DNA of 64,000 nucleotides, from positions 96,001 through 160,000 of IMG/VR virus record IMGVR_UViG_3300029305_003510; one strand, given 5' to 3'. Positions 20,662-59,551 of the stretch are shown here, piece by piece (position 1 is the first letter of the stretch; each line of letters starts with the position of its first letter). Source of the stretch: a virus (Duplodnaviria; Caudoviricetes). Both the position numbers and the translations under genes were made by a program. Below the pieces are notes generated by a model, which saw only the letters and a program-made list of their open reading frames with translations, did not search any database and was not told the origin of the DNA.

Positions 20662-22449
20662 ATGAGTGCTAATTATCTCAAACTTTTATCGGCAACGGAT
20701 AAACTTCCAGTGCATACTGATTTAGATACACTGGATATCTACTGTGAATATCTGTTGAACGATTCCAGCAAATACATAAACTATGCAAATTTAACGAATC
20801 TTCAGGATTACATATCGAGAATGGATCCGAAGATCTTTATGACGAATGATGCAAAGATGGCTCGATATGAATTCATCAAGTGCTATCTGGAAGCTCGTAT
20901 CAGTCGTGGTGTAGTTTCTCGTAAGATGTGTCTCCGATATGTAAGTGAAACTGTAGATCATAAGTATTGGAAGATCATCCAGCGAGAGATTCTTAATTCG
21001 ATTGAACCTGATACACTGAAGAAGAAAGATATTGAATTTATCAATGATATGATCTTTGCTCAATTGAACGTCATGTTTCTGCATGCATACAAGGCTCCGA
21101 TTGTGCGACTTATGGAAGAATTGGAGACGAATGAGTTCGGTAAAACTCCTGAGAGTTGTACGAATGCAATCCAGTTATTCCAGAGTATGTTGAATGAGCT
21201 TATGAAAGCTCAGCGGAGATCTAAGCAGGACAATAGATTCAATCTGACAGACGTGAACCATTTTAATGCTATTATGACTGAAGCATGGGATAGACTGTTA
21301 TCTGAAAGTCAATTCTGGCAGACTGGTATGCAGGGTATGAATAACATGCTTGGTGGTGGCTTTGAGAATGGTCGAGTGTACAATTTCATTGGTGCAACAG
21401 GTGGTTTTAAATCTGGTTTGTTGTTAAATCTGATGAAGATGATCAAGCTTCATAATAAGGGCCATGAACACAAAGATCCAAATAAACGTCCAACCATACT
21501 CTTTCTCTCTCAGGAAAATAATATCTGGGAGACTATTTTACGTATTTTTGGTATCTTTGGAACAACCAAGAACATTCGGAATTTTACACCGGATGAAATT
21601 ATGGAGATTCTAAAGAAAGGTGGCTTCTGTCTTGTAAATGATGAGCAGGATATCGATATCGAGTTTCGATACTATGGAAATATGGATATCGGTGCAAGTG
21701 ATATTCGAGGTATTGTCGAAGAGCTTGACAATGCAGGTAGAGAAGTTATTTGTATCCTGCAAGACTATATTGAGAGATTGAGACCGCCGATTATGTCGGC
21801 AGATCGTAGAACACAGCTTAATGACTGTTCTAACCAACTTCATGATCTGGCGATTGAGCTGGATATTCCTATTATCACCGGTTCACAGTTTAACCGAGAT
21901 GGTGTAGCAACAATCGAAGATATGAGAGCTGCTGATAAGCATGATATCGGTAAGAAAGTTGGTAGCAAGAATGTTTCCGAGTCATTTGGTATGTTGAAGA
22001 ACTTCGATGTAAATATTAGCATTATCATCGAGTATGACGCAACAGAAGAACGATTCTGGTTGTCATTTAGACGTCTGAAATTCCGTGGTGATGATACGGA
22101 TGCTCTTGACTATTTTGTTCAGCCGTTTGTCGGAAAGAATAGCAAAATCCAGCTGATGGAAGATATCAATGCGGATGTTCCTGTGTATCGTAAATCTATG
22201 GTAGATGAGATTGCTGCAAATATTGTGGATGATGCTCAGTCTATCGGAGATATTACCAGACGCTCGAGAACTCTGCTTGAACCTGTAACGGATGATGCAG
22301 ATGATATTGAGATTGCAAACTTCATGGGACAGTTTGTAGACGATCTGGAACATTCTACTGGTGAGAAACCCGATGGAAGAATTACCGACAGTGACGGCTT
22401 CTATGTACTGATCCCGGCTATGCCGGGCAATGTCATCATGAGCCGTTGA
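20662..22449 (+). CDS. DnaB-like replicative helicase
   Basis: Walker A GATGGFKS, SQEN, QDYI, TGSQFNR motifs. Confidence 0.85.
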   Translation: MSANYLKLLSATDKLPVHTDLDTLDIYCEYLLNDSSKYINYANLTNLQDYISRMDPKIFMTNDAKMARYEFIKCYLEARISRGVVSRKMCLRYVSETVDHKYWKIIQREILNSIEPDTLKKKDIEFINDMIFAQLNVMFLHAYKAPIVRLMEELETNEFGKTPESCTNAIQLFQSMLNELMKAQRRSKQDNRFNLTDVNHFNAIMTEAWDRLLSESQFWQTGMQGMNNMLGGGFENGRVYNFIGATGGFKSGLLLNLMKMIKLHNKGHEHKDPNKRPTILFLSQENNIWETILRIFGIFGTTKNIRNFTPDEIMEILKKGGFCLVNDEQDIDIEFRYYGNMDIGASDIRGIVEELDNAGREVICILQDYIERLRPPIMSADRRTQLNDCSNQLHDLAIELDIPIITGSQFNRDGVATIEDMRAADKHDIGKKVGSKNVSESFGMLKNFDVNISIIIEYDATEERFWLSFRRLKFRGDDTDALDYFVQPFVGKNSKIQLMEDINADVPVYRKSMVDEIAANIVDDAQSIGDITRRSRTLLEPVTDDADDIEIANFMGQFVDDLEHSTGEKPDGRITDSDGFYVLIPAMPGNVIMSR

Positions 22450-22489
22450 TGTATAAACACTGTAAATTATTTTAAGGAGGAAATAATCC

Positions 22490-23206
22490 ATGCCTACTCT
22501 GAAAGAAAACGGAATTCCTAAGAAAGTCCCTCTTCTCATTAAACCTGAAAACATCACGTTTTATGACATTGAGATCAATGATGCGTTCGATTACGGCGCT
22601 CTGACACCTGAAGAGGTAACAGAGATTCAGCAGGCTAATGCAGACTTTGAAGCCAAGGTTCTGCAGCCTGAGCTGATGGGACGTGCACATCCCTGTGTTT
22701 GTATGCAGGAAAAGATCATGGAGCGTGCAATTACCCGTATGAAGCTGACTAACCAGCAGCCTGTAAATGGTCAGATCCCTGTTGAACTGACTCAGGAAGA
22801 TATCGATATGAAGCAGTTTGGTGTTGTTGTCAATACTGCTAATGGTCGATATGATGGGATCCTGGCCATTCTGTCCCGCTGTAAGGGTTGCAGTGATATT
22901 CGCATTTGGGGCACTATTGAGCCTCTGACCGCTATGGTTGCTATGGCATATAACGACTATATGAATCGCCAGCCCCAGCGTGTTGCTGTTCAGCAAGCTC
23001 TTGACGAGCGTGAGCAGAGTGATATCGCACCTGATGGTGATGATACTGCTCCTGTTGTCGAACCCAATACCGCTGCTGATGGTCCTATGTTCATGCTGGA
23101 AAATACCGAGACTGGAGAGAAGCATGCTGCAGATAATCTCAGCGAGGCTCTGTTTGGCGGCGGTAACAGCGAGTTCAAGATGACTGAAGCAAACGGCAAG
23201 GAGTAA
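22490..23206 (+). CDS. Hypothetical protein with acidic tail
   Basis: SD AAGGAGG, biased codon usage. Confidence 0.8.
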   Translation: MPTLKENGIPKKVPLLIKPENITFYDIEINDAFDYGALTPEEVTEIQQANADFEAKVLQPELMGRAHPCVCMQEKIMERAITRMKLTNQQPVNGQIPVELTQEDIDMKQFGVVVNTANGRYDGILAILSRCKGCSDIRIWGTIEPLTAMVAMAYNDYMNRQPQRVAVQQALDEREQSDIAPDGDDTAPVVEPNTAADGPMFMLENTETGEKHAADNLSEALFGGGNSEFKMTEANGKE

Positions 23207-57664: not shown

Positions 57665-57700
57665 ATAGTTTGCCATTATACAGAGACGGGAGCTCAAGTT

Positions 57701-59551
57701 ATGAATGAATTTATTGCTGCATATTGTCACCGAAATGATGAACGTATCAACCGTGATATGTTCGAGCGTAAATACGATAAGCCTCTCGTTGAGTATATTG
57801 TAGATACGTGTAAGAATCTGGAAGTTATCCCTGGTTTGACTTTGGAAAGCTGGGAATTGGTAACTGACCAGACAAAAATTCGCAGCGCTATTGATAAAAG
57901 GCATGCGAAAGATCCTAAGATCAAGAATAATCGCACTCTGGAGCGTCTGGCTCAACCGAACCGGACGCTCTATGATATGCTCTATCTGAACTTCCGTATC
58001 CAGGCAAAAGGAAAGGATGTGCAGGTTCAGAGAAAGGTTCGAATCTTAAAGCCCGTTCGTGGTGGGTGTTATATCCGTAATGGTAAGAAGGTTCGTATCC
58101 TGAATCAGGTCGTAGATAATTCCACTTTCGTAAAAGCGGATGTTCTCAATTTTAAGACCAAGCTTTATCCCATTAAACTTGCAACTGTAAAGTCCAAGCT
58201 AAAGTTTACCGATGGAGAGACGGCCACTTGTGCATGTTTCAGACTCGATCTTCTCTCCAAGGTAACAAATCCCCTGATCTACTATTTGGCTCAGTATGGT
58301 CTGACAGGAACTTTGGAAATGTTCAGTCTGGAAACTGTAATGTCAGTAGTAGATAATCCTCTTGATGAGGAGCACTATATGTACCTCCGACTGCCTAATA
58401 ACGTATATTTGGAGGTACACGAGAAAGCCTTTTATGCGCATGAGTTCATTGCAGCTTTTACTGCAACACTTCATGATGTATTGAAGGGTGACGGTGAGAT
58501 GACCTTTAAGGATGTCTATGATCAGGAATACTGGATGGGTCGTCTTTCTGAGATTTTCTCAAAGAAACGCTATGCAAGCAAAGCTTTACGTGTGTTAGTG
58601 TCTTTCAATAAAATTATGGATGTTGGTGTGAAGAAGCAGCTTGTTATTCGAAAACACCATAAGAAAGATACCTTCACTATCATTCGATGGATGATGACGA
58701 ACTATGGAGATCTGCTCAAGAAAGACTCTCATGATCTTCGATATAAGAGAGTCCGTGCCAATGAAACTCTGGCATATTTCTTCGATAAGCATGTAAGTAA
58801 AAATGTCTACAGTTTATTGAACACCGACAATCCTCCATTCGAAAAGTATATTCGGCTGTTGAACTCGATCAACGAGTATACACTGCTGAAAGGTGCTAGC
58901 GGTGGAGGAAAGAATAGTTCAACGAGTATGTTCCGCTATGAACGATATAATGACTTTGACGCAATCGAGATCTCCCGTTATACTTTGAAAGGTCCTACTG
59001 GTTTGAATGGTGGCAAAAAGGGTATCTCCATGAAATATCGAGATATTTATCCTAGCCATCTTGGTCGGTATGATCTAAATGTTTGCTCGAGTTCCGATCC
59101 CGGTCTAACTGGATATCTCTGTGCAAACGTGCAGTTGGATTCTAGTGGATATTTTGACGTGAAGGATAGTGAGCCGGATAACTATGATCCGGTGATCGAT
59201 GTCATGTTGATGAAATTCGCTGATCCTGACTATGCAGCAAAAAGACGGGATTATATTCAGACCCAGTTGTCTCGTGATGCGGATGGGTTTGTTCGTCTTA
59301 AGCGAAGAAAGACTTCTCGTGAACTTCAGAAGATGTTCCTGGAAGAGCCTGAGAGATATGGTATGTATCGGACCAATGATGGTCTGCGATTAATTCCTAA
59401 GATGGGGGCTGTTGATGCAAAGGGTTTCAAGACTCTTATCCGTCGGCGTACACCTAAGGAAGAGGCTGCAGATATCAGAGATGCACAAGGCTTCATGGTT
59501 CTTAAACCTGTAATCACTAAACTTGACCAGCGGAAAGCTACTAAGAAATAA
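57701..59551 (+). CDS. RNA polymerase beta subunit, N-terminal half (probable non-virion RNAP)
   Basis: YIRNG, KGPTGL and RDIYPSHLGRYDLNVCSSSDPGLTG correspond to the beta RDVHPTHYGR...GL region. Confidence 0.85.
   Translation: MNEFIAAYCHRNDERINRDMFERKYDKPLVEYIVDTCKNLEVIPGLTLESWELVTDQTKIRSAIDKRHAKDPKIKNNRTLERLAQPNRTLYDMLYLNFRIQAKGKDVQVQRKVRILKPVRGGCYIRNGKKVRILNQVVDNSTFVKADVLNFKTKLYPIKLATVKSKLKFTDGETATCACFRLDLLSKVTNPLIYYLAQYGLTGTLEMFSLETVMSVVDNPLDEEHYMYLRLPNNVYLEVHEKAFYAHEFIAAFTATLHDVLKGDGEMTFKDVYDQEYWMGRLSEIFSKKRYASKALRVLVSFNKIMDVGVKKQLVIRKHHKKDTFTIIRWMMTNYGDLLKKDSHDLRYKRVRANETLAYFFDKHVSKNVYSLLNTDNPPFEKYIRLLNSINEYTLLKGASGGGKNSSTSMFRYERYNDFDAIEISRYTLKGPTGLNGGKKGISMKYRDIYPSHLGRYDLNVCSSSDPGLTGYLCANVQLDSSGYFDVKDSEPDNYDPVIDVMLMKFADPDYAAKRRDYIQTQLSRDADGFVRLKRRKTSRELQKMFLEEPERYGMYRTNDGLRLIPKMGAVDAKGFKTLIRRRTPKEEAADIRDAQGFMVLKPVITKLDQRKATKK

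Follow-up and report, generated by a model that had tools for sequence, protein, structure and literature searches.

In bacteriophage T4 the gp45 clamp is contacted through a short motif, LDFLF, that is present in gp43, the ligase gp30 and gp33, and has been proposed for RNase H (PMC6212786). Jumbo phages with multisubunit RNA polymerases (RNAPs) have been described as being without a classical sliding clamp (PMC7824862); all that has come to light since then is a clamp domain in chimalliviruses, which is monomeric and part of a fusion. This PCNA/9-1-1-like domain is reported to be fused to RNase H (the fusion is termed Rhc) and to bind the polymerase through a folded surface (PMC13648687, PMC13648698). 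Linear import signals were also sought in chimalliviruses, and were not found (PMC11087766). Here we describe a short peptide motif, hereafter the tag, that recurs in a phage related to AR9. The 64,000-nucleotide stretch analysed (the window) comprises positions 96001-160000 of a 230,855-bp phage contig (IMG/VR record IMGVR_UViG_3300029305_003510) in which 218 genes were called; the genome is 89% complete, and those of two relatives, G002 and G003, are 100% complete. The tag is a real linear motif of 10-12 residues, under selection, located in the flexible ends and linkers of unrelated nucleic-acid proteins.

A sequence-only reading of the window had derived the pattern D.[DEKQ]G[FY]..[LM].[PR] from nine copies, and all nine 30-nucleotide segments translate as claimed, in frame and in the open reading frames (ORFs) named. 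Run unaltered against the 218 called proteins, the pattern gave 14 matches, compared with 0.06 expected from per-protein shuffles and 0.04 from local shuffles over 25 amino acids, which is the enrichment over shuffled proteomes that the reading had proposed looking for. Five of the 14 matches lie outside the window and provide a held-out test of a consensus derived post hoc; the expected number was 0.03 and the maximum in 300 shuffles was 1. A six-frame scan added two further copies, one in an intron HNH gene and the other upstream of one called start. The codons vary between copies, as had been noted in arguing for conservation at the protein level, and the DNA flanking the copies is identical at only 8.4 of 30 positions, which is the chance level. 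These data rule out DNA-level duplication or a repeat as the origin of the copies and show that selection acts on the peptide. The consensus from 76 copies is (R)-D-x-[DE]-G-[FY]-[IV]-x-L-x-[PR]-[RK]. Degenerate copies in the present genome (GyrA, the SF2 helicase, RNase H and g63) correspond in alignments to canonical or near-canonical ones in their orthologues, which identifies F-x-x-L-x-[PR] as the core. Within 40 amino acids of a terminus there are 57 of the 76 copies, where 22 would be expected. The description of the motif as 'appended' to seven proteins does not apply to the hypothetical protein encoded from 56825, where the copy is internal (residue 127 of 279). Searches of the literature with five spellings of the motif string returned nothing relevant.

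All copies in the window are on the + strand. Three are in the C-terminal tail of the β-N subunit of the non-virion RNAP (nvRNAP; gene 57701-59551), at 59276..59305, 59414..59443 and 59480..59509, and a half copy, L-x-L-I-P-K, lies between the first and second at 59381..59401. The G, F and L of each of these tail copies are retained in 87-99% of 120 β-N homologues, which are 54-100% identical, whereas the spacers vary. The individual counts out of 120 are G 117, F 111 and L 116 for copy 1; L 107 and P 109 for the half copy; D 104, G 119, F 112 and L 104 for copy 2; and R 112, D 114, G 118, F 109 and L 117 for copy 3. The tail is poorly ordered in the structure model, with a predicted local distance difference test score (pLDDT) below 50 at copy 2. 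The C-tail copy of DnaB (22387..22416; gene about 20821-22449) is present in 3/3 clade orthologues, so both proteins display the conservation in orthologue tails that had been put forward as a check. The HNH endonuclease encoded at 28330-29178 also holds its copy in the C-tail (29107..29136), and five clade relatives likewise end in the motif. In the NAD-dependent ligase (52939-55374) the copy is in an N-terminal extension (53041..53070) and is found in most clade ligases. GyrA has a degenerate N-terminal copy, GEFLSLKP (32517..32546), that was not in the earlier reading; the motif is canonical in the G003 orthologue and partial in others. Hypothetical proteins account for the rest. The near-C-terminal copy (49688..49717) of a clade-specific protein encoded at 49070-49885 is kept in five aligned orthologues, whereas the C-tail copy (52697..52726) of the protein encoded at 51908-52780 is weaker in one orthologue and lost in another. 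For the internal copy at 57203..57232 (gene 56825-57664) seven syntenic proteins were compared; they are 16-21% identical, and three of their five invariant columns are motif residues. The outgroup-alignable part of DnaB stops at residue 484 and the motif is at 523, while that of the ligase begins at residue 100 and the motif is at 35. Indeed, in 8/8 carriers with alignable outgroup orthologues the tag is beyond the aligned span, in agreement with the earlier view that it lies outside catalytic cores.

The phage is placed among the multisubunit-RNAP jumbo phages, in an AR9-like clade, by its divergent DnaB, its split divergent B-family DNA polymerase (PolB) and its second RNAP, all of which are shared with AR9/PBS1 and phiR1-37; virion genes are common to these phages at 20-35% identity. 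β-N is 22-27% identical, over residues 1-496 only, to its counterparts in AR9/PBS1, phiR1-37, LPJP1 and Staphylococcus jumbo phages, and its structure model best matches the AR9 nvRNAP core. The earlier identification of the divergent DnaB, the divergent NAD ligase, the HNH protein and nvRNAP β-N was upheld. In contrast to the present phage, AR9/PBS1 and phiR1-37 have a β-N that ends without the 120-residue tail, and genomes without the motif.

A profile built from the present genome alone detected 19 copies here, 23 in G002 and 17 in G003, while two half genomes had 9 apiece. On outgroup genomes this profile returned 0 in G005, 0 in G006, 1 in G007 and 0 in AR9, with shuffles giving 0-0.2. 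At the level of a DNA pattern the motif was absent from phiKZ, phiR1-37, LPJP1 and S6. At 52 loci, near-copies included, the surroundings of the RNAP genes contained 61 matches in the clade DNA (280 kb) and none in the outgroup DNA (542 kb). The tagged genomes lie together on one side of a long branch with 100/100 support. The bacterial contigs of a metagenome-assembled genome (MAG), G009, contained 11 pattern matches compared with 8 in a reversed control; there is no excess, and therefore the tag is not an imitation of some motif widespread in that bacterium. A 125-kb clade contig (L035; G009 contig C66) was binned in this MAG, which is titled Ruminococcus flavefaciens; this either hints at a host among the Clostridia or reflects faulty binning. 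Gut habitats are indicated for the clade by record names and by the title of one MAG.

The carriers include DnaB, the SF2 helicase, the ligase, GyrA, RNase H (degenerate in the present genome, near-canonical in G002), β-N, a PC4-like protein and a small PolB-like protein. The remainder comprise three HNH families, a serine resolvase, a Bro-N/KilAC antirepressor, the reverse transcriptase (RT) of a diversity-generating retroelement (DGR), its partner Avd, a kinase-like protein and several hypothetical proteins. Tagged families make up 14/32 of those acting on nucleic acids, 0/33 virion and 0/15 metabolic families, and thus the claims that the motif is confined to nucleic-acid-acting proteins and missing from virion and metabolic ones both stand. 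These categories are our own, from AR9 homology, Pfam/PHROG matches and sequence inspection; as they are self-assigned and the families are not independent, the Fisher P of 3e-7 for the bias is descriptive only. Untagged in every relative scored are both subunits of the replicative DNA polymerase (DNAP-N and DNAP-C), primase, RecA, SbcC, SbcD, RecD, RusA, the single-stranded DNA-binding protein (SSB)-like protein, GyrB, terminase and the remaining nvRNAP subunits. With the cut-off set at 14, the two polymerase subunits scored 6 and 11 at best; the 11 came from an internal element of DNAP-C, which was rejected because the aromatic residue is missing and G009 does not conserve the element.

Two of the carriers have features of their own. 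In the small PolB-like gene (genome 81729-82580; L005:8729-9580) the tag is upstream of the first called start, and as orthologues have it at residues 7-14, translation probably begins at a GTG or ATA codon in the region of 81740-81755. The 260-residue protein called from genome 81795-82580 has stretches resembling B-family polymerase motifs A and C, is conserved to AR9 and is separate from the split replicative polymerase. The kinase-like protein (genome 78790-80502; L005:5790-7502) appears from alignment to consist of a kinase-like N-terminal domain, a zinc ribbon and a long acidic tail, and it is in this tail that the G002 and G003 orthologues carry the tag.

The earlier proposal that a selfish HNH nuclease had co-opted the motif is supported, and can be extended: three HNH families are tagged, and the DGR RT and Avd are tagged too, with pattern matches outside the window at genome 227643-227672 and 229623-229652, respectively (both on the - strand). 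The tag is missing from those outside relatives that were compared for these carriers and for the Bro-N antirepressor. In the RT, tags begin at residues 394 and 411, while the ten GenBank relatives listed align only to residue 373 or less. The intron HNH protein, in which the tag is an insertion near the C-terminus, is 56% identical to an untagged G006 protein, and the NUMOD4-HNH protein of G002 is tagged, unlike twelve further relatives, of which eleven come from outgroups. These two comparisons suggest that the tag was grafted later onto selfish elements, with gain as the probable direction of change. Some clade HNH proteins and resolvases are untagged.

A candidate partner for the tag is encoded outside the window. 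The 245-residue product of the gene directly after DNAP-N (genome 173671-174408, - strand) had no family match by sequence (PHROGs, ESM Atlas, PDB profile) and was recognised only through folding. It folds at pLDDT 96 (from an alignment of 53 sequences), and its top structural matches by Foldseek and VIA, several phage ribonuclease H proteins being among its matches, are all sliding clamps or viral processivity factors. The best VIA match has Z 10.4, a root mean square deviation (rmsd) of 4.5 and 202 aligned residues, the T4 gp45 clamp (6drt) gives Z 9.1, rmsd 4.2 and 185 aligned residues, and unrelated folds begin at Z 4.2. By its predicted fold the gene beside the split B-family polymerase thus encodes a stand-alone protein of the PCNA superfamily, of PCNA/gp45 type. 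In one relative it occurs as a natural fusion with DNAP-N (L113:10001-12814, P0161); a search for longer versions, which is weak evidence, found no other fusion forms, that with DNAP-N being the sole large one. RNase H is not fused to it here, the two genes being about 96 kb apart. Clamp-sized genes occupy the same position in AR9, G005 and G006, although the profile comparison with the clade family is weak (best E 0.004), so their identification as clamps is based on position and size.

The sequence-only reading had proposed that the motif binds one phage hub protein: a clamp, an SSB, a scaffold or an importer. The clamp gains from the existence of the clamp-fold gene, while the importer loses ground for reasons given below. 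In our estimation there is an even chance that the tag is a lineage-specific clamp-binding motif that docks on the clamp-fold protein. The aromatic and leucine residues would plug into the partner face of this protein, and docking would bring the ligase, RNase H, helicases, gyrase and nvRNAP to newly replicated phage DNA, with the three β-N copies providing avidity; in T4, gp45 plays this part for gp43, ligase, RNase H and gp33. The held-out enrichment, the restriction to one clade, the location beyond outgroup-alignable spans and close to termini, the clamp fold and its fusion to DNAP-N in a relative all count in favour of this reading. The polymerase may hold the clamp through a folded surface, like phiKZ DNAP with Rhc, which would make a tag needless. 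The HNH nucleases, DGR RT and Avd could have gained the tag after entering the clade, hitch-hiking to replicating DNA. Mobile elements bind clamps (PMC6698660), further precedents are reported (PMC3971601, PMC11417375), and DGR homing favours the lagging-strand template (PMC12875486). The tagged ligase, RNase H and RNAP match the T4 gp45 partner set, and recombination proteins and SSB are untagged; this division fits gp45 partners better than an import list, which should hold RecA and polymerase. That RNase H is fused to a clamp domain in chimalliviruses, and is separate and tagged here, is a Rosetta-stone argument in the same direction. Several observations weigh against clamp docking. Both polymerase subunits lack the tag, unlike T4 gp43, and the 76-copy profile is unlike PIP, QL[SD]LF and LDFLF. 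No RFC-type or other AAA+ clamp loader was recognised among the proteins scanned (part of the gene set), and the one P-loop candidate, beside DNAP-C, was set aside as deoxynucleoside monophosphate (dNMP)-kinase-like; since, in addition, the related Rhc clamp domain is reported to be a non-ring monomer (PMC13648687), a free sliding ring is unproven. The clamp-sized genes of AR9, G005 and G006 mean that a clamp gene does not predict the tag. Prediction of a complex between the clamp-fold protein and RNAP tail residues 583-616 gave a score of 0.01 with an uncertain peptide fold, and speaks neither for nor against binding. Finally, the Bro-N antirepressor, the kinase-like protein and Avd are not obvious clamp clients; Bro-N and Avd look more like cargo, which keeps a compartment or another organiser in contention.

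The tag would in that case be an address read by a non-clamp phage organiser, the importer or scaffold of a chimallin-independent replication compartment that is possibly positioned by tubulin, and we regard this as possible but not probable. A single tagged subunit would then admit each complex (GyrA for gyrase, β-N for nvRNAP, DnaB for primase). The tagging of very different, horizontally acquired DNA-acting proteins (three HNH families, Bro-N/KilAC, the serine resolvase, RT and Avd) is consistent with such an address, as is an intron HNH protein that is tagged where its 56%-identical outgroup relative is not. A tubulin/FtsZ-family gene without the motif (42784..43971, + strand; PF00091, E 1.8e-14) is found in the clade and in G005 and G006, which have a seemingly cognate tag, and was undetected in AR9 and G007, which have neither; clade-only conserved genes also exist, for example at 45478-46404 beside tubulin. 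Against this, no chimallin was detected at the sequence level by hidden Markov models (no match under E 0.07, where held-out chimallins were recovered at E 1e-68 or better) or by hhalign against 132 families, G002 and G003 also being negative. There was no match to PicA/Imp1 with phiKZ gp69 or phrog_3141, a weaker test that had no phage positive control. None of RecA, SSB, SbcC, SbcD, RecD, RusA, primase, the two DNAP subunits and the clamp has the tag, an argument against its being a general import signal, as is the absence of the tag from certain clade HNH proteins and resolvases. Known phage nuclear import, moreover, relies on surfaces and not on linear signals (PMC11087766). The phage-nucleus importer of the earlier reading has lost support accordingly, and it is doubtful that the tag directs proteins, as a genuine linear signal and the first in phage, to a chimallin-independent replication compartment, and that selfish elements acquire it to reach protected DNA. 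If the partner were an importer, the tag would be the linear signal sought in vain in chimalliviruses.

It is unlikely that the tag docks on some other shared regulatory protein, such as the phage GroEL-like chaperonin, the kinase-like protein, the SSB-like protein, or a host protease or replisome factor. Both the clade and G005/G006 conserve chaperonin-, kinase- and SSB-like genes, but carriers restricted to nucleic-acid proteins would be unexpected for a chaperone or degron signal, and the bacterial contigs of G009 hold no excess of the pattern. SSB tails normally dock in pockets on partner proteins, which is the reverse polarity. A structural β-hairpin (the DxDG turn) or a nonspecific nucleic-acid-binding patch, with no common partner, is highly improbable. 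DxDG turns are common in proteins, AlphaFold renders the copies as short hairpins and basic residues follow the motif; however, such a role is difficult to reconcile with near-absence from outgroup proteomes and from virion and metabolic proteins, with conservation despite diverging flanks and with grafting on unrelated folds. It is this clade-wide specificity that makes it unlikely.

The sister lineage represented by G005 and G006 (L071-L082, L090-L102; L136, L139, L146, L152) appears to have a different, possibly cognate tag, an acidic run followed by Y-[YIV]-I-[DEN]-I, which is terminal in β-N, the PC4-like protein, HNH nucleases and the g31 orthologue. Four terminal matches occur in G005 against 0.5 in shuffles, a post hoc and weak result. 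For g31 itself the Atlas gave a low-score lead (0.78) to small terminases. An apparently related tag on the same proteins suggests a partner common to both lineages, a description that both the clamp-position gene and tubulin fit, and therefore the sister tag does not decide between clamp and compartment. In G007 (L103-L112; for example 48820-50451, 93946-95940 and 139058-140989) about 20 small proteins (66-190 residues), none a recognisable replication enzyme, end in a common motif resembling F-[DE]-D-D-E-x-A-x-L-W-F-K-L-N. The window has other features of note. The tubulin-family gene, which had no match to PhuZ of cultured phages, is followed by two clade-only genes (42784-46404 in all), the second about 54% conserved, that are candidates for a DNA-positioning system. 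A clade-only 218-residue protein with a C-terminus that is HU/IHF-like by eye is encoded at 56018-56674, preceded by a 640-bp ORF-free gap. Thymidylate synthase-like and DHFR-like genes (14598-17020; inspection only) suggest thymine DNA, while AR9/PBS1 have uracil-DNA.

If clamp docking is correct, a stand-alone clamp-fold protein and a genome-wide docking code would give this group of phages a T4-like toolbelt, and late transcription would be expected to depend on replication by way of a core RNAP subunit. The route by which DGR cDNA gets to its target becomes testable, because RT and Avd are both tagged, and the tag marks uncharacterised proteins as acting on phage DNA. To judge from its sequence the tag belongs to none of the PIP, β-clamp-binding or gp45 motif families, and it would work like a clamp toolbelt motif. 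PicA/Imp1 import similarly selects DNA-acting proteins, homing nucleases included, but through folded surfaces with no conserved signal sequence, and it requires ChmA and PicA, which were undetected here (PMC11087766). Chimallivirus Rhc resembles the present case in that a PCNA/9-1-1-like domain occurs alongside a split B-family polymerase. It differs in that the clamp-fold protein of the present phage stands alone, its RNase H is a distinct, tagged protein and chimallin is undetectable, and for Rhc the available text of the two reports describes no linear docking motif (PMC13648687, PMC13648698). The PCNA PIP box and the bacterial β-clamp motif share the toolbelt logic and the hitch-hiking of selfish elements (the RmInt1 intron-encoded protein, insertion sequence and Tn3 transposases), whereas their sequences are unrelated to the tag and the presumed clamp here is viral. 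DGR proteins are, to our knowledge, not known as clamp clients. T4 gp45 offers a parallel in that replication and transcription proteins of unrelated kinds have a single short hydrophobic motif in their flexible parts, and in that the phage encodes a clamp fold. The consensus in the present phage is a different one, the polymerase is untagged and no gp44/62-type loader was recognised, while the tag is found, in contrast to T4, on selfish elements and, in three copies, on a core subunit of the phage's own multisubunit RNAP.

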